Positions 4,600 to 24,149 of a stretch of 64,000 nucleotides of DNA are shown here, one piece after another; position 1 is the first letter of the stretch; each line of letters opens with the position of its first letter. The notes under the pieces are model-generated. The model was not told the origin of the DNA. It ran no database searches and was given only the letters and a program-made list of their open reading frames with translations. Both the position numbers and the translations under genes were made by a program. Source of the DNA: Pseudomonadota bacterium (GTDB lineage Bacteria > Myxococcota_A > UBA9042); contig SXRM01000037.1 of assembly GCA_005792545.1 (NCBI GenBank), forward strand, positions 1,706 to 65,705. The letters run 5' to 3'.

Positions 4600-7500
4600 A
4601 TGAAACCACGACCTTGTTCACATTCCCTCACTGCCGCGCTTGCGGTGGCTGGCCTTGCGCTAGCCGCATGTACTGCCGACCCCGGCGCCGCCGGCAAGGA
4701 CGGCAAGAACGGCACCATCTGCACCATCAAAGACAACGCCGACGGCAAGAAGGCGCTGACGTGTGACGACGGCACCAGCATCGTCATCGCCGACGGCAAG
4801 TCGGGCACCGACGGCAAGGGCTGCACGCTCACCGACGACGCCAACGGCAAGAAAATAACCTGTGGCGACGGCACGACCGTCACCTTGACCTCAGGCAAGG
4901 ACGGGACGGCCGGCAAGGACGGGGCGGCGGGCGTCAACGGCAAGTCGTGCACGGTCAAGGACAACGGCAATGGCACCAAGACCATCAACTGCGAAGACGG
5001 CACCACCGTCACCGTCGCCGATGGCAAGCCAGGCGTCAACGGCCAAAGCTGCACCATCAAAGACAACGGCGATGGCACCAAGGCCATCAACTGCCCGGGC
5101 GACGCCACGGTCATCGTCAGCGACGGCAAGGCCGGCAAAGACGGCACCAACGGCAAGTCGTGCACGGTCAAAGACAACAACGACGGCACCAAGACCATCA
5201 GCTGCGAAGACGGCACCAGCGTGACGGTCTCGGACGGCAAGGTCGGCGCTGCGGGCAAAGACGGCGGGACCGGCAAAGACGGCGCCGCGGGCGCCAATGG
5301 CAAGTCTTGCACCGTCAAGGACAACGGCAACGGCACCAAGACCATCAGCTGCGAAGACGGCACCAGCGTCGTCGTCGCCGACGGCAAGGTCGGCCCGGCC
5401 GGCGTCTCTGGCGCCAGCACCGGCGTCAACGTCGAAGTCAAGAGTGTTTCGACGGTCGCCACCGACCCCATCAAGGTCGTGTTCACGCTCAAGGACGACA
5501 AGGGCTACCCGATCGACGTGTGCGGCAACTACTCGCTAAACACGGTCATCACGCCGCGCTTCAGCCTGTCGGTCGTCAGCAAAGACAGTGCGGGCAACAC
5601 CCTGCCCTACACGGTGCTGACGCGGTCGGCGTCGACCACCGGGCCGACCGTCGCCAACCCGACATCGCTCAGCCCGCTTGGCAGCAACTGCAAACCGGCG
5701 GTAACGACCGCTGGCGCATCGACCGGCCACGGCACGTTCGCAGAGAACGCTCCGGGCGAGTACACCTACACCTTCCCGACTGCCGACACCGCGGCTGGCC
5801 CGGTCAAGGTTGGCTACGATGCCGCCAAGATGGATTTGACCCACGTGCTGTGGATCCAAGTCTCGCGGCAAACCGACGTCAACTACACGCAGAACACGGT
5901 GACCTTCAAAGCCACCAACAAGGAATATGCGTTCGTGCCGAGCGGCAAGGCCACGCCGGTGCGCCGCGAGTTGGTCGCGACCGCGACATGCAACAACTGC
6001 CACCGCGGCTTTGCGCCCGAGGGCACGACCTCGGGGTCGTTCCACGGCGCGGGCCGCGTCGAGGCGCCGTACTGCAACGTGTGCCACAACGACCGCAAAG
6101 TCTCGGCGACCGGTGCGGACAATGAAGTGGCCAATACGGGCGTCTACATTCACCGCCTGCACAGCTCGGACCACCTCAACCCGGCCAACCTGTACTATGG
6201 GATCAAGTTCTCGTTCCCGCAGGACATTCGTAACTGCAAGGCCTGCCACGCGGGTTCGCTGCAGCAAGACCAGTACAAGACCCGGCCCAACCGGCAGGCC
6301 TGCACTTCGTGCCACGACTACGTCGATCTCAAGACCAACACGCTGCCCAAGTGTGCAAAGCCGCGCAAGGCCGACGCCAATGGCGTCCTGGAGCCATGCC
6401 AGCACACCGCAGGTCCGCAAGCCGACACCGCCTGCGTCAACTGCCACACTCCGCAGCAGATCGACGACAGCCACCAGACCGTTGTGCCGCCGGACCCGAA
6501 CAACATCTACGCCAAGCCAACGGGCGGCAACACCAACACCAACGCCGGCTATCTGACCGCCGCCGGCTTCGTGCCGTCGGGTGCCGATGTCATCACCTAC
6601 GACCTCAAAGAAGTGACGACCTGGCTGGACGGCAGCGTGCGCAGGCCGCAAATGACCTTCAAGTTCAAGAAGAACGGCACAGACGTGGTGTTCCAGACCT
6701 ACCAGGCCGGCAGCGTGACCGAGCTCATGGCTGGCTTTGTCGGATCGCCGAGCGCCTACTTCGTGTTCGCGGTGCCCCAAGACGGCATCAAGATGCCAGC
6801 CGACTTCAACGCCAGCGCCAGTGGCTACATCAAGAACGTGTGGAACGGCACCACCAGTTCGATTACGGTCGGCACGGTGACGCAAGGCAAACAGGGCACC
6901 ACCGACTGCACTGCCAGCGCGCCGTGCACCTGCGCCGCCGCGCCCAACAACTGCGTGGTGCCGCTTGGTAGCCTGACGCTCGATGCCACCACCGGTTACT
7001 ACACCATCAAGCTGTTCACGGCGCAGGTGCCGGCCAACGCGACCATGCTGCAAGGTGGTCTGGGCTACACCTACAACCTATCGAGTGCCCCACCGCTGAC
7101 GCAGATCAACCTGCCGAAGTACCCGTACGATGCCGCAACCAAGATTGGCGGCCTGGTGGTGCCACCGCCCAACGTGTGGAAGCCCGCATTGACCAAGGCG
7201 GCAACCACCGGCACCATGACGACCGGCTATCAGGGCACGCAACTGTGCGCCGACAAGGCCTGTGACTGCACAACCGCAGCGCCCTGCAACGACTGGGCCG
7301 CCCGTCGCCAGATCGTCGACAACAAGCTGTGTCTGAACTGCCACAAGCAGCTGGGCGCCGCACCGAGCTTCCACGGCGGTCAGCGCAACGACGGCCAGTC
7401 CTGCAGCTGGTGCCACACGCCGAACCGCACCAGCACCGGCTGGTCGGCCAATTCCAAGGACTTCGTGCACGCCGTGCACGGCGCCCGCAAGCGCGTCGTT

Positions 7501-8004
7501 CCGTTCACCTGGCAGGCTTTCTCGGCGACGCAGAACTTTGGCGAAGTCGAGTTCCCGGGCCCCATCAGCAACTGCACGGCCTGCCACGTAGCTGGCGCGT
7601 TCGACTACAGCGGCAACGCGGTCAAGGCGGCCTTGCCAAACATGCTGCCCAGCACAGTGGCGCAGGGCAAGTACAACAGCGACCCATTGGCGAACAGCAC
7701 GTACTTCCGCCTGTCGCCCTATGTGATCGCGGACAACGTGTACAGCTACGGCAGCGGCTTCTCGTTCTCGTCGGCAACCGGCTTGGCCACTGAGGCCACC
7801 GACACCACACTGGTCAAGTCGCCAATTACCGCGACCTGTAGCGCGTGCCACGACAACGACCCGGCGCTCGACCACATGGAGGCCGCCGGCGGCAAGTTCT
7901 ACGCCACCCGCGCGCAGTACAAGGCGCCCGGCGCGACCAAAGAACAGTGCTTGCTGTGCCACGGCCCCGGCAAGATCGCGGCCATTGCCACCGTGCACAA
8001 GTAG
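4600..8004 (+). CDS. OmcA/MtrC-family decahaem c-type cytochrome lipoprotein with N-terminal repeat stalk
   Basis: Lipobox LAAC (Cys24); ten CxxCH motifs in 5+5 arrangement (CNNCH, CNVCH, CKACH, CTSCH, CVNCH / CLNCH, CSWCH, CTACH, CSACH, CLLCH) separated by haem-free domains; RBS AAGGAG. Confidence 0.9.
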   Translation: MKPRPCSHSLTAALAVAGLALAACTADPGAAGKDGKNGTICTIKDNADGKKALTCDDGTSIVIADGKSGTDGKGCTLTDDANGKKITCGDGTTVTLTSGKDGTAGKDGAAGVNGKSCTVKDNGNGTKTINCEDGTTVTVADGKPGVNGQSCTIKDNGDGTKAINCPGDATVIVSDGKAGKDGTNGKSCTVKDNNDGTKTISCEDGTSVTVSDGKVGAAGKDGGTGKDGAAGANGKSCTVKDNGNGTKTISCEDGTSVVVADGKVGPAGVSGASTGVNVEVKSVSTVATDPIKVVFTLKDDKGYPIDVCGNYSLNTVITPRFSLSVVSKDSAGNTLPYTVLTRSASTTGPTVANPTSLSPLGSNCKPAVTTAGASTGHGTFAENAPGEYTYTFPTADTAAGPVKVGYDAAKMDLTHVLWIQVSRQTDVNYTQNTVTFKATNKEYAFVPSGKATPVRRELVATATCNNCHRGFAPEGTTSGSFHGAGRVEAPYCNVCHNDRKVSATGADNEVANTGVYIHRLHSSDHLNPANLYYGIKFSFPQDIRNCKACHAGSLQQDQYKTRPNRQACTSCHDYVDLKTNTLPKCAKPRKADANGVLEPCQHTAGPQADTACVNCHTPQQIDDSHQTVVPPDPNNIYAKPTGGNTNTNAGYLTAAGFVPSGADVITYDLKEVTTWLDGSVRRPQMTFKFKKNGTDVVFQTYQAGSVTELMAGFVGSPSAYFVFAVPQDGIKMPADFNASASGYIKNVWNGTTSSITVGTVTQGKQGTTDCTASAPCTCAAAPNNCVVPLGSLTLDATTGYYTIKLFTAQVPANATMLQGGLGYTYNLSSAPPLTQINLPKYPYDAATKIGGLVVPPPNVWKPALTKAATTGTMTTGYQGTQLCADKACDCTTAAPCNDWAARRQIVDNKLCLNCHKQLGAAPSFHGGQRNDGQSCSWCHTPNRTSTGWSANSKDFVHAVHGARKRVVPFTWQAFSATQNFGEVEFPGPISNCTACHVAGAFDYSGNAVKAALPNMLPSTVAQGKYNSDPLANSTYFRLSPYVIADNVYSYGSGFSFSSATGLATEATDTTLVKSPITATCSACHDNDPALDHMEAAGGKFYATRAQYKAPGATKEQCLLCHGPGKIAAIATVHK
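4684..5417 (+). repeat. six intragenic tandem modules C-T-(V/I)-K-D-N-x-x-G-T-K-T-I-x-C-x-D-G-T separated by 3-8 Gly-X-Y triplets
   Basis: Repeats visible in protein and DNA (ggcaagtcgtgcacggtcaa... recurs near 4940, 5152, 5300). Confidence 0.92.
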
Positions 8005-8120: not shown

Positions 8121-8558
8121 CTAGTTGTTCTTGGCGCCGTCGGCGATCCAGGCCTTTACGGCGTCGATCTTGTACTGGTCCAGCCGCGCACCGGGGGGCA
8201 TGCCGCCCTTGGCCTTGCCAAATGGGTGGTCGAGCACGATCCACAGCACGCTTTTGTCTGGCTTGCCGGGCTCGACACGGTTGAGCGGCTTGCCGGCGTC
8301 GTCGATCTCGCCGGATTCCTTGCCAACGAGGTTGGCAAAGCTCGTGGCCTTGTCTTTGAGGCTCAAGTTGCCGGCGCCAGTGCCCTCGCCGTGGCAAGCC
8401 GAGTTGGTGCACGACTTTGCGAAGACCTCGGTCTGGAGCACGCTGAGCTTGGGCTCCAGGGCCGGCGTCGATGATGCGGAGTCGCAAGCGCCAGCCAACA
8501 GGCAAGCAACCGGCAGGCAGACCCGCCAGGTTCGCGATGAGTTAACACTACTTGGCAT
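8121..8558 (-). CDS. monohaem cytochrome c-like lipoprotein (CX4CH)
   Basis: Lipobox AGAC; SCTNSACHG; candidate Met ligand in GGMPP; C-terminal AVKAWIADGA helix typical of class I cytochromes c. Confidence 0.7.
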   Translation of the reverse strand: MPSSVNSSRTWRVCLPVACLLAGACDSASSTPALEPKLSVLQTEVFAKSCTNSACHGEGTGAGNLSLKDKATSFANLVGKESGEIDDAGKPLNRVEPGKPDKSVLWIVLDHPFGKAKGGMPPGARLDQYKIDAVKAWIADGAKNN

Positions 8559-9108
8559 CGGTCAGACTCGGAGCATCTGCGGCGGAGGCAGCATCGGCGT
8601 TGCCATCGCTTGTGGCGCCAGCGTCGGCCGGCTTGGCTTCGCCGACGCAGGCGATGAGCACGCAGCCCTTGCCCGCGCTGGGATTGGCCGGGTCGCCGGC
8701 ACACCGCGCCCCAGCGCCACATTGCGCATCGGCAACGCAAGGCATCGTGCAGAACGCTTCTTTGCCGGCCGTAAACGCAGCGGTACACATCACGGCGGCC
8801 AGGTCGTCCTTGCCGGCCTTGCCGTCGTTGGCCTTGCATTCTCCGCCCTTGGCGGTACACGGCATGCCGACGCCGTAGGGTTGGTCGCACCAACGCTCCT
8901 GACAGGCTTCCAGGGGCGGTGTCGGGTGCTTGCACGCCGCCTTGGCGCCATCGGCGAGCGTGCCGCCATCGCTGCTTGACGCGGAATCACTCGCAGCGTC
9001 TGTGGCGACTGCCGTTGGTTCCTTGGCCGCGCACGCCGCAATGAGCACCGCAAGGACCAGTGCTCCGCCGCGGGCTCTGCCCAGGCCTTCGAAACGAGCG
9101 ACGCACAT
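8548..9108 (-). CDS. Cys-rich lipoprotein of unknown function
   Basis: GGAGG RBS 7 nt upstream; lipobox IAAC; Cys-rich core; stop overlaps the next gene by 11 nt. Confidence 0.7.
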   Translation of the reverse strand: MCVARFEGLGRARGGALVLAVLIAACAAKEPTAVATDAASDSASSSDGGTLADGAKAACKHPTPPLEACQERWCDQPYGVGMPCTAKGGECKANDGKAGKDDLAAVMCTAAFTAGKEAFCTMPCVADAQCGAGARCAGDPANPSAGKGCVLIACVGEAKPADAGATSDGNADAASAADAPSLTDAK

Positions 9109-9139
9109 GGTTGAACCTCCAGACGGTCGCGGCTGCGAA

Positions 9140-10126
9140 CTAGTCGTTATTGCAGATGATGACGCCTTCTTTGAGCGCCGGGTAGTAATACGACACTGTC
9201 GTGCACATCTCTTTGGGAAAGAACATTTGCTTGCCGCTGGTGTTGTTCCAGGTGCAGGTCACTGTGATTTCGTCGCCTGCTTTGAGGTCGAGCGACGTTG
9301 CGCCCACACCAAAGACCTCAACCGGCCCGGCGTCGCGGAATTCAGGCTTCCACTGGGCCACGTTGAACATGGTCTTGGACGGATAGGCCTTGTCAAGCGG
9401 CCGCGTGTGTTCGACTTTGATCTTGGTCCCCATCTCGTGCATGTGGCCCAAGGTGGCGAGCAACTTGATGTCGGCCGGCACTTTGCACTTCGTGCTGCGG
9501 GTGGTCTCGCCTTTGGCGGCGACGTCGACCAGGCTGTCGTTCAAGATGAAGTAGCTGACTTCGGTCAAGCTGGCCTCGGTCGCGAACTCGAGGCGGGCTA
9601 CATCTTGAATCTCAATGGTCTTGGCGCCGTAGTTGACATAATGCGACTGAAACACCGGCCGCATCCCTTTGGCCAGCCGCACGGCGTAGCCCTCTTGGAG
9701 CAAGGACTTGTCGCTGTGCGCATCCGGATCCGGCAGTACCAACGGCTGCAGGTTGACCATCTGCGCGACGCTGGTGCAGTCAAAGGTCTGACCGGGCTTG
9801 TAGTTGCCACCCTTGTCTTGCAAGGCCACGACGTGGTGACCCATCGTGCCCTGGAAGCCGCGAAACTTGCGGATCATATAGTCTTTTTCGGGCACCCACT
9901 CGGGCACCCAGCACAGCATTTTCTCTTCGCCGGGGGCGACCGTCAGCTTGGGCCCGACGAACTGCATGCCTTTGTCCGCGCTGGGCGCGGCGGGCACGTT
10001 CTTGGCTTTCTGATCCACGACAGCAGGTGCGTCGGGGGCGGCACTCTCGCACGACATCGCAACCGCAGCAGTCAGCACGGCGGCGCAGGCGAGCGCGGGG
10101 ACACGATTGGGCTTGAAAAAGCGCAT
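9140..10126 (-). CDS. copper type II monooxygenase (PHM/DBH-like) lipoprotein
   Basis: All six Cu ligands visible: GHHVV (H,H), QSHY (H), GHMHEMG (HxH), KEMC (M); lipobox AMSC. Confidence 0.85.
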   Translation of the reverse strand: MRFFKPNRVPALACAAVLTAAVAMSCESAAPDAPAVVDQKAKNVPAAPSADKGMQFVGPKLTVAPGEEKMLCWVPEWVPEKDYMIRKFRGFQGTMGHHVVALQDKGGNYKPGQTFDCTSVAQMVNLQPLVLPDPDAHSDKSLLQEGYAVRLAKGMRPVFQSHYVNYGAKTIEIQDVARLEFATEASLTEVSYFILNDSLVDVAAKGETTRSTKCKVPADIKLLATLGHMHEMGTKIKVEHTRPLDKAYPSKTMFNVAQWKPEFRDAGPVEVFGVGATSLDLKAGDEITVTCTWNNTSGKQMFFPKEMCTTVSYYYPALKEGVIICNND

Positions 10127-20291: not shown

Positions 20292-20441
20292 TTCGCGCGC
20301 GGCCGGCTGTTTTTCGGTTGCCGCCGCCCCTTGCAAAACGCTACGCTACGCGCCCCTCGCGCCTTGGGCGACGGTCTGATGCTAGGACCGCAGCCCGTGC
20401 CGGCGCGCGCACCGCTGACCGCACAGGGAACGGATATCACC

Positions 20442-23400
20442 ATGAAACCAAACGGCATTGCCGTGAATCGTTTGTGGATCGCCGCTCTGTGCGCTGCGGC
20501 GAGCGGCTGTATCGCGGGCGGCGGCGGCGGCGGTGGCGGCGGTGGCCCCTTTGTGGCAGACAGCGAGCAGAGCGACCTGGTGCTGCAAATCGGCGACGGC
20601 GACGCAACCGGTGGCACCGGCGATGGGACCGCTGGGGCCGAGACGGACGGCCCTTCGACCGGCGACAGCGGCGGAACCGGCGACGGCGGCGGGCAGACGG
20701 GGGACGGCGGCGGCATCGGCGACACCGCGAGCCAAGGCGACACGGCGACCACCGACGCCAAGGACAGTGCAAGCGGCTGCACCAAGGCCGGCGATTGCGA
20801 CGACGGCAACCCATGCACCAACGATACCTGCAACGCCAACAAGTGTGCGTATGCGCCGGTGGCCGGCTGCGGCACCCAGCCCGTGCCCTGTGACGCCAAG
20901 AACGCGTGCCCGGCGGGCGGCGGCGTCTGCGACAACGAGGCCCACGCTTGCGTGCCGTGCCTGGTCAGCAAGGACTGCGGCGCCGGCAAGGTCTGCGCCG
21001 GCAAGCAGTGCGTCGCCGCGCCAGCTTGCAAGAGCGACGTGGACTGCAAGGCCAGCGGCAAGGTCTGCAACAAGACCGCGGGCGCCTGCGTCGAGTGCAA
21101 TCAGCCGGGCGACTGCGGCACCGACAAGGCCTGCATCAACAACCAGTGCTTTGCGGCACCGCCGTGCGCGACCAGCAAAGAGTGCGACAAGGTCTGCGAC
21201 TTCCAAAAAGGCGTCTGCGTCGATTGTTTGAGCGCCGAAGACTGCCCGGCCGGCCAGACCTGCACCCCCGACAAGCTGTGCAAGCCGGCGCTGTGCACCG
21301 CCAACGCGTGCGGCGCGGGCCAGAGCTTCTTTGTCTGCAAGCCGGGCGGCGGCGGCTACCTCGCAGGCGTGTCGTGCGAGGACGGCAATGCGTGCACGGT
21401 CAATAGCTGCGCGCCGGACAAGGGCTGCTCGACCAAGTTCAACGCGGCGACCTGCGACGATGGCGACCAGTGCACCGAAGGTGACGTCTGTTCGGTCGGA
21501 CAATGCGTCGGCGCCAAAAAAGAGTGCGACGACGGCAACGCCTGCACCAACGACAGCTGCAGCCCCAAGCTCGGCTGCGTGACCGGCCCGGCTTTTGGCA
21601 ACTGCGACGATGGCAACTTTTGCACCACCGGCGATTACTGCGAAAACGAGAAGTGCACCGGCACGCCCAAGGTCTGCGACGACGGCAACATCTGCACCAA
21701 GGACGTATGCGACCCCAAAGCCGCATGCCAGTTCGACACTGCCGAAGGCCCGTGCGACGACAAGAACGTGTGCACGAGCAACGACAAGTGCGTGTCGGGC
21801 GTGTGCCTGGGCGAGGCCAAGGGCTGCGACGACAACAACGCTTGCACCGATGATAAGTGCAACGTCGCCGGCGGCGGCTGCAGCTACACCAACAACGCCG
21901 CTGCTTGCGAAGATGGCAACCAGTGCACCACCGGCGACAAGTGCTCGCTCGGCAAGTGCTATGCAGGCGTCACCAAGAACTGCGACGACGCCAATCCGTG
22001 CACCACCGACAGCTGCCTGAACGGAGCCTGCCAGGGCCTGAACAACACGGTGGCCTGTAACGACGGCGACGCATGCACACTTGGCGACGCCTGCAGTGGC
22101 GGTGCTTGCAAGGCCGGCGCGACGCCGCAGACGTGCAACGACAGCAACCCCTGCACCGACGACAAGTGCGACAAGCTGGTCAACTGCCAGTACCTGGCCA
22201 ACACGGCAGACTGCAACGACAGCAATGTCTGCACCGACGCCGACAAGTGCGCCAACAAGGCCTGCGTGGGTGGCGCGGCCAAGACTTGCGAGGACAACGA
22301 CGCTTGCACCCAGAACACCTGCGACAAGGTCGCGGGCTGCAAGTACCCGGCCGATCTCGCCAAGTGCGACGACAAGGACCTGTGCACCACCGACAGCTGC
22401 TCAGCGCCTGGCGGCGCCTGCAAGCACGACAAGGTGCCCAACTGCTGCACCAAGCAAAGCCAGTGCGACGACGCCGACCCGTGCACCGACGACATCTGCG
22501 CCGGCAACCAGTGCGTGCACAAAGGCAACGGCAAGTGCTGCGCAGAAGACGGCGAGTGCAATGACAATTCGGCGTGCACCGCTGACTCGTGCCTGCTCGG
22601 CAAGTGCCAGTTCACCACCTTGCCTGGCACGCCAACGCCTGCCGTTCTGGGCGACTGGGAAGACCTGGGCGACATCCAAGACTGGGTCGCCAACCCCAAC
22701 GTCGGCGTCATCGGCTGGTCGCAGAGCAGCACGGCCGGCGCCAACACCGGGTCGGGCGCGCTGCTGTTTGGCGACCCCGGCAAGCTCAAGAACGCCAGCG
22801 GCACGGTGTCGGTGTCGATCCTCAGTCCCAAGTTCACCGTGCCGGCCGGCGGCAAGGCCACGTTGTCGCTGAGTTGGAAGCAGGATTTCGTCGGCTTGTC
22901 GTCCACGGCCTACCCACCACTGGTGGTCTACGTTGTCGCGGGCGGCAAGGAGACGGCGCTCAACACCGGCTACTACAACACGCTCAAGAAGTACCAGCCG
23001 ATTACGGTCGACTTGTCGCCCTACGGCGGCCAGTTGGCGCAGGTCAAGCTCGTCGGCCTCATCTACCACAGCGCAGCCTCGCCGGCCTCGGGCTATGGCG
23101 TGGTGGTCGACGACGTCACCACCTCATGGACCTGCAAAGCGACGACCTGCACCGCAGACAGTGGCTGCACGACAGCCTCGGCGTGTTCGCAGGGCGTGTG
23201 CGTGGCCGGTTCGTGCGCCTACGCGTTCAAGTGCTGCACGCTGGCCACCGACTGCAACGACAACAACCCGTGCACCACCGACTCGTGCAGCGGCACCAAG
23301 TGCGTGCACAGCAAGATCGCCGGCTGCTGCGGCAAGGACACGGAGTGCAACGACAGCAACGTGTGTACCTACGACACCTGCAATGTCGCCACCAAGACCT

Positions 23401-24149
23401 GCAAATTCGCCGGCGTGTCCGAATGCTGCACCAGCAATGCCAATTGCAACGACAACGAAGCCTGCACCATCGACAGTTGCGACGCCGGCACCTGCAAGTT
23501 CCAGAACACCTGCTGTGCCACTGACAAGGAGTGCGACGACAAAGACAACACCTGCACCATCGACAAGTGCAACCTGACGACCAAGAAGTGCGAGTACACC
23601 GGCACCGGCGTCGCCGGCTGTTGCACCCCGATTGTGTGGAAGGAGAGCTTTGACACGCCGCTCGCGGGCTGGACCATCTCGAATTCTGGTGGCGCCACAA
23701 AGGGTTGGCAGCAATGGGCCACACCCAAGAACCCACCGGGTCCCAAGTCGGCGCCCGGCGTGCTGTACTATGGCGACCCGCCGTTACTGAACTTCAATTT
23801 TGGCGCCAACAGCGGCACCATCAAGTCGCCCAAGATCACGTTGCCGCCGACGGCGACCAAGCTGACCGTCAAGGCGTGGCTGTACATGGACACCGAAGCC
23901 GGCGGCGCCGGGTCCTACGACGACCTCTACCTGTATCCGGTTGTCGACGGCGTGCAGATGGCGGCAGTCTGGACCAAGTCGACGGTCGGTTTCACGGTCG
24001 GTTCTTGGATTGCGATTACCGGCGATCTGACGGCCTACAAGGGCAAGTCGCTGGAGCTGCTGTTCAACTTCAACACCAAGGACAGCATCGGCAACAGCGG
24101 CCTGGGCGTGCTCATCGACGACCTCATCGTGGAGCGCGCGTGTCCGTGA
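20442..24149 (+). CDS. large Cys-rich surface lipoprotein with about 21 C-D-D-G-N-x-C-T-x-D-x-C repeats and two beta-sandwich domains
   Basis: Lipobox ASGC, Gly/Asp/Thr linker, repeats counted by eye, two mutually similar domains (GxLxFGDP...SPKxTxP...DLxxYxG...GVxxDD). Confidence 0.85.
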   Translation: MKPNGIAVNRLWIAALCAAASGCIAGGGGGGGGGGPFVADSEQSDLVLQIGDGDATGGTGDGTAGAETDGPSTGDSGGTGDGGGQTGDGGGIGDTASQGDTATTDAKDSASGCTKAGDCDDGNPCTNDTCNANKCAYAPVAGCGTQPVPCDAKNACPAGGGVCDNEAHACVPCLVSKDCGAGKVCAGKQCVAAPACKSDVDCKASGKVCNKTAGACVECNQPGDCGTDKACINNQCFAAPPCATSKECDKVCDFQKGVCVDCLSAEDCPAGQTCTPDKLCKPALCTANACGAGQSFFVCKPGGGGYLAGVSCEDGNACTVNSCAPDKGCSTKFNAATCDDGDQCTEGDVCSVGQCVGAKKECDDGNACTNDSCSPKLGCVTGPAFGNCDDGNFCTTGDYCENEKCTGTPKVCDDGNICTKDVCDPKAACQFDTAEGPCDDKNVCTSNDKCVSGVCLGEAKGCDDNNACTDDKCNVAGGGCSYTNNAAACEDGNQCTTGDKCSLGKCYAGVTKNCDDANPCTTDSCLNGACQGLNNTVACNDGDACTLGDACSGGACKAGATPQTCNDSNPCTDDKCDKLVNCQYLANTADCNDSNVCTDADKCANKACVGGAAKTCEDNDACTQNTCDKVAGCKYPADLAKCDDKDLCTTDSCSAPGGACKHDKVPNCCTKQSQCDDADPCTDDICAGNQCVHKGNGKCCAEDGECNDNSACTADSCLLGKCQFTTLPGTPTPAVLGDWEDLGDIQDWVANPNVGVIGWSQSSTAGANTGSGALLFGDPGKLKNASGTVSVSILSPKFTVPAGGKATLSLSWKQDFVGLSSTAYPPLVVYVVAGGKETALNTGYYNTLKKYQPITVDLSPYGGQLAQVKLVGLIYHSAASPASGYGVVVDDVTTSWTCKATTCTADSGCTTASACSQGVCVAGSCAYAFKCCTLATDCNDNNPCTTDSCSGTKCVHSKIAGCCGKDTECNDSNVCTYDTCNVATKTCKFAGVSECCTSNANCNDNEACTIDSCDAGTCKFQNTCCATDKECDDKDNTCTIDKCNLTTKKCEYTGTGVAGCCTPIVWKESFDTPLAGWTISNSGGATKGWQQWATPKNPPGPKSAPGVLYYGDPPLLNFNFGANSGTIKSPKITLPPTATKLTVKAWLYMDTEAGGAGSYDDLYLYPVVDGVQMAAVWTKSTVGFTVGSWIAITGDLTAYKGKSLELLFNFNTKDSIGNSGLGVLIDDLIVERACP

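Follow-up and report, generated by a model that had tools for sequence, protein, structure and literature searches.

A decahaem MtrC/OmcA-type lipoprotein carried on a haem-free stalk of disulfide-stapled modules and collagen-like linkers in a myxococcotal genome

We analysed a 64,000-nucleotide stretch of contig SXRM01000037.1 (assembly GCA_005792545.1, lineage Myxococcota_A; the whole stretch is called the window below). At 4600..8004 on the plus strand the window contains an open reading frame for a 1134-amino acid lipoprotein in which a decahaem head of the MtrC/OmcA type is separated from the lipidated cysteine by a haem-free stalk. The stalk is built from six two-cysteine modules joined by collagen-like Gly-X-Y triplets. 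On balance, we favour the reading that the protein is a terminal cytochrome anchored in the outer membrane, that its head works in the manner of MtrC and OmcA, and that the stalk serves as a non-conducting spacer or leash, with a Pcc-like conduit as the likely electron partner.

Anatomy of the stalked cytochrome

The reading frame has a GC content at third codon positions of 0.86, which is of the coding type. The protein begins with MKPRPCSHSLTAALAVAGLALAAC and has the lipobox L-A-A-C, whose Cys24 was nearly invariant in an alignment of 60 sequences and was kept in at least 90% of the homologues. The residue that follows the lipidated cysteine (position +2) is Thr and not Lys. Coordinates of all features are collected in Table 1.

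The head was recognised by both sequence profiles and structure. It scored 303.4 bits against TIGR03507, the OmcA/MtrC family decahaem cytochrome profile (cut-off 209.3), and 158 bits against Pfam PF22113 (cut-off 30, E 1.7e-46). The sole sequence relative of the head in the PDB was MtrF (3pmq, 7.6e-22). An AlphaFold2 (AF2) model had a mean predicted local distance difference test score (pLDDT) of 75 overall, with values mostly of 80-95 within the head, and the order of domains in the head, from this model and Foldseek, is beta, pentahaem, beta, pentahaem. Foldseek matched the model with UndA, MtrC and MtrF at E values of 1e-17 to 3e-14 and a probability of 1.0, the best being UndA (3ucp, 1.2e-17) and MtrC (4lm8, 9.1e-17, template modelling (TM) score 0.67); TM scores for MtrC and MtrF ranged from 0.59 to 0.68, all normalised to target length. 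The protein has ten CXXCH motifs in two groups of five, none of them in the stalk. These ten motifs and ten further histidines were invariant or nearly so across the 60 homologues. Five of the additional histidines (482, 518, 521, 602 and 625) belong to the first pentahaem block and are invariant, and five (925, 957, 960, 1092 and 1133) belong to the second block and are conserved; all ten are candidate distal ligands that would fit a bis-His pattern.

The modules of the stalk are 25-26 amino acids long and of the type CTVKDNGNGTKTISCEDGTSVTVSDG. Pfam PF19079 (CFSR, collagen-flanked surface repeat) matched at 39.8 bits (cut-off 27) in four stretches, our own module profile detected six copies, and the module also matched the TIGR04203 repeat. 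The linkers between the modules are 8, 17, 8, 11 and 23 residues long, corresponding to 3, 6, 3, 4 and 8 Gly-X-Y triplets. All five are 3n + 2 long with Gly at every third position. A further ~4 triplets precede module 1 and ~3-4 follow module 6, so that the whole stalk contains ~31, with no uninterrupted run longer than 8. In the AF2 model of the monomer each module consists of three short beta strands with both cysteines at the open end of the first hairpin. The pLDDT was 55-77 in the modules and below 50 in every Gly-X-Y linker, and a monomer model cannot reveal a triple helix. Against solved structures the stalk gave only chance-level matches, the best being gp76 at E 0.019.

The composition of the stalk is unusual in what it lacks. 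Gly makes up 20% of it, Thr 14%, and Asp and Lys 12% each, and there are 12 Cys. Phe, Trp, Tyr, His, Met and Arg do not occur at all in its 247 residues, compared with 127 occurrences in the head. Accordingly, the stalk can supply neither a haem ligand nor an aromatic relay, and it offers no hydrophobic surface for packing against the head. This composition is the best available argument that the stalk is probably non-conducting and probably not folded back onto the head.

The repeats are not an artefact of assembly or of a recent expansion. Orthologues at four species-level loci (L013, which is 90% identical, L014, L015 and L018) have six modules each, and the DNA under the stalk repeats with a 102-bp period but with only 73% matches. 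Because of this divergence the duplication must be old; it and the six-module orthologues rule out both artefact and recent expansion. Shorter repeats of 9 and 18 bp also occur in the DNA that encodes the stalk.

A preliminary description of this DNA had called the protein an MtrC/OmcA-type decahaem cytochrome on a haem-free stalk of six two-Cys modules separated by 3-8 Gly-X-Y triplets, and had placed the stalk at 4600-5420, which is residues 1-273 and comprises the signal peptide and the stalk. This anatomy proved correct in every particular. The assignment of the head is borne out by the TIGR03507 score, the ten CXXCH motifs and the MtrC/UndA/MtrF fold, and the stalk is not only haem-free but also without His, Met, Tyr, Trp and Phe. 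The monomer structure prediction that it had suggested gave separate three-strand modules and unstructured linkers, with low pLDDT.

Table 1. Features of the stalked cytochrome and of other loci named in the text (positions refer to the window unless a contig is given)
Feature	Position	Strand	Basis
Signal peptide and lipobox LAAC; lipidation predicted at Cys24, which would begin the mature protein	4600..4671	+	Sequence
Haem-free stalk, residues 25-271 (247 aa)	4672..5412	+	Sequence, profile matches, AF2 model
CFSR module 1, residues 41-66, Cys41/Cys55	4720..4797	+	Module profile; AF2 strands 40-46, 50-55, 60-63
CFSR module 2, residues 75-99, Cys75/Cys88	4822..4896	+	Module profile, AF2 model
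CFSR module 3, residues 117-142, Cys117/Cys131	4948..5025	+	Module profile, AF2 model; best Pfam CFSR stretch 113-150
CFSR module 4, residues 151-176, Cys151/Cys165	5050..5127	+	Module profile, AF2 model
CFSR module 5, residues 188-213, Cys188/Cys202	5161..5238	+	Module profile, AF2 model; best TIGR04203 stretch 187-216
CFSR module 6, residues 237-262, Cys237/Cys251	5308..5385	+	Module profile, AF2 model
OmcA/MtrC-type head, residues 272-1134, and stop codon	5413..8004	+	Profiles, Foldseek, AF2 model
First pentahaem block, CXXCH at 464, 492, 546, 568, 612	5989..6447	+	Sequence
Second pentahaem block, CXXCH at 911, 935, 992, 1080, 1117	7330..7962	+	Sequence
Four-Cys insert in head, residues 770-785	6907-6954	+	
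Four-Cys insert in head, residues 883-896	7246-7287	+	
Three-gene lipoprotein set, convergent with the cytochrome gene	8121-10126	-	
1272-aa Cys-rich protein with Dicty_CTDC repeats	20331-24149	+	PF00526, 1e-27
Electron-transfer cluster, genes in one direction	C113:29948-45756 (L011:2949-18760)		Gene scan
7-CXXCH lipoprotein with collagen stalk	C383:11764-14250 (L012:2765-5251)	-	

Two inserts with four cysteines each, CTASAPCTCAAAPNNC and CADKACDCTTAAPC, were also seen in the head. They are present in the subclade with CFSR stalks and absent from the majority of homologues, which are ~940 amino acids long; one further homologue (P0022) has three similar motifs elsewhere. These inserts may be small disulfide knots.

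Stalks in the head family and beyond

A search with the head returned 495 proteins and, in species-representative genomes, 250 loci. Nearly all carriers are Myxococcota metagenome-assembled genomes (MAGs), and the taxa include Haliangiales, Kofleriaceae, Anaeromyxobacteraceae, Myxococcaceae, Archangiaceae and Polyangiaceae. The closest relative, L013 with 90% identity, comes from a MAG labelled M_DeepCast_65m. One cultured strain, Anaeromyxobacter oryzae Red232 (L061), is among the homologues, and its protein has a plain-collagen stalk.

Stalks were surveyed in 120 homologues and 53 species-level loci. Every complete protein surveyed had a stalk, of 24-857 amino acids, made of CFSR modules, DUF7151 modules, Cys-free collagen or Dicty_CTDC repeats. 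In the subclade of the window protein there are two to six CFSR modules, and the four loci with six modules named above have stalks of 242-253 amino acids. Most Haliangiales and Kofleriaceae proteins have two DUF7151 modules with 4 Cys in ~115-135 amino acids. Stalks of the Anaeromyxobacteraceae are Cys-free and consist of Gly-X-Y only (7-15 triplets, 24-53 amino acids), and one protein, P0007, has an 857-amino acid Dicty_CTDC array with 120 Cys. No haem motif was present in the surveyed stalks apart from one CXXCH each in the stalk stretches of P0088 and L050.

In a tree computed from the heads only, the type of stalk is bound to clades, with at least nine changes in 61 rows compared with a mean of 25.8 after shuffling. 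The Dicty_CTDC stalk is nested within the CFSR clade with 100% branch support. Since a conserved head is combined with a stalk that is obligatory but interchangeable, this pattern argues for a physical role of the stalk, that is, spacing, tethering and perhaps oligomerisation, rather than for sequence-specific binding. The design is also not peculiar to this gene but belongs to a whole Myxococcota clade of MtrC/OmcA homologues; the check on variation in stalk length that the preliminary description had proposed gave the 24-857 amino acid range across the surveyed homologues. Nor is the module new, for it is already catalogued as PF19079 and TIGR04203 on about a thousand lipoprotein clusters.

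The distribution of the stalk itself was determined by searching 1.84 billion cluster representatives with the stalk alone. The search matched 1033 proteins at an E value of 1e-3 or lower, 316 of them at 1e-10 or lower. When the content of 149 of the best-scoring proteins was checked, 141 had the module and most had an N-terminal lipobox, but only 8 were decahaem cytochromes. The other heads found on CFSR stalks include DUF4988, DUF7151, Filamin, FGE-sulfatase, Laminin_G_3, SRCR and Fib_succ_major, and we take DUF4988, Fib_succ_major, Laminin_G_3, SRCR and Filamin to be typical of surface or secreted proteins. The register of the linkers is also shared, 288 of 316 linkers in diverse CFSR proteins (range 2-59 residues) and 25 of 26 in the cytochrome subclade being 3n + 2 long. 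PF19079 and TIGR04203 proteins thus have the same 26-amino acid two-Cys module, placed N-terminally in a lipoprotein and in register with the Gly-X-Y runs on either side, and differ from the window protein in that most of them are not cytochromes. The CFSR/collagen stalk is a generic N-terminal lipoprotein stalk and not a device special to cytochromes. A literature search for PF19079 and for the collagen-flanked surface repeat found no paper on the repeat itself.

Cytochromes that do bear CFSR modules fall into at least six divergent MtrC/OmcA head subfamilies, which are mutually only 25-35% identical. The window protein and its own paralogue on contig C113 share 45% identity over 215 amino acids of the stalk, compared with ~27-32% in the head. 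Similarly, the stalks of two metagenome proteins, P0008 and P0217, are 63% identical (73% in the first 70 residues), while their heads belong to two different MtrC/OmcA subfamilies and share only ~27-32% identity. Because stalks and signal peptides are more alike than heads, these comparisons suggest exchange of stalk cassettes or gene conversion between paralogues.

Several other observations were made on the family. The window encodes, separately from the cytochrome, a 1272-amino acid Cys-rich protein with MAM-like ends and with Dicty_CTDC repeats of the same type as in the P0007 stalk; a Dicty_CTDC protein is also found directly upstream of homologue P0004 in L009. The contigs that carry homologues with DUF7151 stalks in L039, L040 and L042 were assigned by binning to Sideroxydans sp. 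or 'Proteobacteria bacterium'. Because these sequences nest among Kofleriaceae and Haliangiales in the tree, a binning error is a likelier explanation than transfer. Tandem pairs of MtrC-like genes occur in ~22 of 80 loci, including L029, L032, L042, L046, L058, L076, L079 and L092; the second copy is often shorter (720-790 amino acids in L029, L032 and L042) and is longer in L046 and L058.

Stalked cytochromes of the genome and a candidate electron source

The 7.0-Mb assembly, which is 78% complete, was scanned in all six frames. Only two proteins matched our CFSR module profile, and both are decahaem: the window protein and the C113 paralogue, a divergent OmcA-like protein with four modules and 26 triplets. 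The four proteins richest in collagen-like triplets genome-wide are all multihaem cytochromes in which the lipid Cys directly precedes the triplets. They are a protein on contig C383 (7 CXXCH, 33 triplets), a protein on C113 (9 CXXCH, 26 triplets), the C113 decahaem paralogue and the window protein. The association of stalk and cytochrome is therefore very strong in this genome and weak globally, and the idea of a cytochrome-specific module, although true inside this genome, was rejected on the global count of 8 in 149. In the C383 lipoprotein the lipobox Cys leads straight into the 33 uninterrupted triplets (the longest collagen run in the genome), and a CarboxypepD_reg-like domain comes after them.

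The paralogue on C113 is part of a cluster of electron-transfer genes. The first genes encode a CcsBA-like maturation protein, the stalked OmcA-like paralogue, a tetrahaem protein, an NrfC-like protein and an NrfD-like protein. They are followed by genes for a collagen-stalked 9-haem lipoprotein with a CarboxypepD_reg domain, a 24-haem protein, a barrel and a 13-haem c7-type protein. From its gene content the cluster looks like a complete quinol-to-surface pathway. The barrel had no Pfam match; its model consists of a signal helix and 22 beta strands and matched outer-membrane barrels (among them ushers, AlgE and TonB-dependent receptors). In a survey of 80 loci, homologues of the barrel (E 1e-20 to 1e-8) and of the 13-haem protein (E ~1e-58) adjoined one or two MtrC-like genes in 14, and 3-haem and ~10-haem proteins were often also present at the barrel/13-haem loci. 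The recurrence of the pair came to light only in this wider survey. The barrel and the 13-haem protein are likely a Pcc-like conduit and a candidate partner of the stalked heads.

The pcc clusters of Anaeromyxobacter encode a porin and a 12- or 14-haem periplasmic cytochrome but no outer-membrane cytochrome (Shi et al. 2014, PMC4245776). Our results suggest that stalked MtrC/OmcA homologues are good candidates for the missing outer component of clusters of this type. The Pcc clusters of Geobacter and Anaeromyxobacter (PMC4245776) resemble the C113 cluster in combining a barrel with a 12-14-haem periplasmic cytochrome, the C113 protein having 13 haems; they differ in that the window gene lies outside such a cluster.

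The window protein had at first been placed in the frame of the Shewanella MtrAB conduit. This frame is inapplicable, since MtrB/PioB (PF11854) gave no match in the genome at E <= 0.1 and none in the window or in three homologue contigs, an absence that is provisional given the 78% completeness of the genome. Electrons are instead likely to come from the Pcc-like barrel and 13-haem pair. Upstream of the cytochrome gene lies a GTPase gene, and downstream of it is a convergent lipoprotein operon, whose three products are a small cytochrome c with a CX4CH-like CTNSACH site, a Cys-rich 186-amino acid protein and a Cu2_monoox_C-like protein.

Role of the stalk and relation to known systems

In the mechanism that we propose, the head would act at the end of the electron-transfer chain, with acceptors or donors outside the cell. 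The tether would be made of hydrophilic, disulfide-stapled, three-strand CFSR mini-domains in register with collagen-like Gly-X-Y segments, and its contour length is estimated at ~25-40 nm (~93 residues at 0.29 nm plus six modules of ~2 nm). As a spacer or leash it could let the head work beyond the lipopolysaccharide or exopolysaccharide layer and reach particles. Since electrons cannot pass along the stalk and haem-to-haem transfer needs near contact, the head would have to be charged by contact. It might touch the Pcc-like trans-outer-membrane conduit (22-strand barrel and 13-haem protein) encoded elsewhere in the genome; neighbouring stalked cytochromes are an alternative electron source. 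Anchoring in the outer membrane is suggested by Thr at position +2, where Lys is reportedly a signal for retention in the inner membrane of Myxococcus. Surface exposure of the head is probable by analogy with characterised members of the family; the spacer or leash role and the electron route are likewise inferred.

Several points weigh against this reading. The default orientation of lipoproteins in diderm bacteria is towards the periplasm. The longest run, 8 triplets, is short by the standard of stable collagen helices. No conduit gene adjoins the window gene, which stands alone, the three homologue contigs share no conserved neighbours, and the incompleteness of the genome makes the lack of MtrB uncertain.

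An alternative that we consider rather unlikely is a rigid trimeric 'lollipop'. The Gly-X-Y segments of three chains would form a segmented collagen triple helix in which the CFSR modules are trimeric beta interruptions, and three decahaem heads (30 haems) would be held at a fixed height; the heads could then form an elevated layer with electrons hopping sideways from head to head. The strict triplet register of the linkers, kept while the number of triplets varies between orthologues, counts in its favour, and nearly all clade members start, in the consensus, with Cys followed by Gly-X-Y triplets. Sister cytochromes reach 26 and 33 triplets without interruption, a length sufficient for bacterial collagens, and the four species orthologues have all kept six modules and a similar length. 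We also count here the GKD-rich triplets of the stalk, which we take to resemble those of streptococcal Scl2. However, the runs in the window protein have only 3-8 triplets and are poor in Pro. Pfam Collagen (PF01391) did not match the protein at E <= 1, and NF038329 (Scl2/SclB) reached 23.9 bits, far under its cut-off of 325. The 9- and 18-bp DNA repeats could give whole-triplet insertions and deletions by slippage without selection. Finally, many clade members use DUF7151 or Dicty_CTDC modules and have only 0-5 triplets, and because collagen is replaced in this way its trimerisation is not a general need of the head.

It is improbable, in our view, that the lipoprotein faces the periplasm and that the stalk lets the head span or sweep the space between a quinol dehydrogenase and the barrel/13-haem conduit. 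Such a protein would keep the default orientation of diderm lipoproteins, its estimated stalk length is similar to the width of the periplasm, where disulfides form, and genes for NrfCD-like and tetrahaem quinol modules lie next to that of the paralogue. Yet the characterised heads of MtrC, OmcA, UndA and MtrF are extracellular according to the literature, and CFSR and its co-occurring heads read as surface-protein domains. A dedicated 13-haem periplasmic cytochrome is already present, and the +2 residue is not the Lys reported as the inner-membrane retention signal of Myxococcus. We give least credence to a stalk that is mainly an adhesin, its CFSR modules binding minerals, exopolysaccharide, prey or partner cells and positioning the cytochrome by attachment and not by spacing: Cys-stapled repeats are common in adhesins, the window also encodes the 1272-amino acid Dicty_CTDC protein, and there is the weak match to the Scl2/SclB adhesin profile, but unrelated stalk cassettes swap on a conserved head, Anaeromyxobacteraceae use bare collagen without Cys modules, the modules lack the aromatic or basic residues usual in binding sites, and the same stalk carries many unrelated heads.

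Returning to the spacer or leash, the protein can be compared with systems already described. Current models of Mtr-type systems place the terminal decahaem cytochrome directly on the porin-cytochrome conduit with haems within tunnelling distance, and Shewanella MtrC/OmcA-type proteins have only a short linker after the lipid Cys. The window protein resembles Shewanella MtrC, OmcA, MtrF and UndA (TIGR03507; 4lm8, 3pmq, 3ucp) in being a lipoprotein with ten CXXCH motifs, two pentahaem and two beta domains and the same fold. It differs in having only ~14-17% identity over the fold alignment, a larger head (~860 amino acids compared with 593-800 residues in the matched PDB chains) and the 247-residue stalk, and in that mtrAB neither adjoins the gene nor was detected in the 78% complete genome, the likely partner being the 22-strand barrel and 13-haem cytochrome. 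A likeness is also seen to the 'lollipop' proteins Scl1 and Scl2 of Streptococcus and BclA of Bacillus, in which Lys/Asp-rich Gly-X-Y triplets hold a globular head off the cell surface. In contrast to these, the runs here are short (3-8 triplets) and broken by disulfide modules, the lipid anchor is N-terminal and the head is redox active.

Neither the head family nor the repeat family is new, and proteins of this kind appear in databases under the label 'OmcA/MtrC family decaheme c-type cytochrome'. MtrC has been listed among genes for extracellular electron transfer (EET) of Myxococcota in lakes (preprint, 10.1101/2022.03.26.485925). Our literature search, which included the question raised at the outset of whether the architecture had been characterised, found no description of the stalked design, of how universal it is in the Myxococcota clade, or of Pcc-type conduits paired with heads of the MtrC type. 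Judging from the gene neighbourhood in 14 of 80 loci, an MtrC-type head with a Pcc-type conduit would be a hybrid of two described systems.

A bolder extension, which we think unlikely, is that Myxococcota have evolved a third EET design. Heads of the MtrC/OmcA type and other multihaem heads would not rest on the conduit but would be raised on rods of collagen and CFSR modules with a lipid anchor, perhaps trimeric with 30 haems on each rod, and would form a canopy 20-40 nm above the outer membrane. The Pcc-like barrel/13-haem conduit would feed this canopy, which would conduct laterally through contacts between heads. The length of the stalk would be tuned in each lineage by whole-triplet slippage and cassette exchange.

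These results give PF19079, an uncharacterised Pfam repeat, a functional context. They also define a large and environmentally widespread Myxococcota family (the 250 species-level loci) in which the head is always separated from its anchor by a stalk without cofactors. This raises the concrete question of how a stand-off cytochrome is charged, and the candidate answers are that it shuttles on its tether, that cytochromes form a canopy, or that a leash keeps it close to a docking site. Anaeromyxobacter oryzae Red232, a cultured strain with a plain-collagen stalk, provides an experimental entry point.

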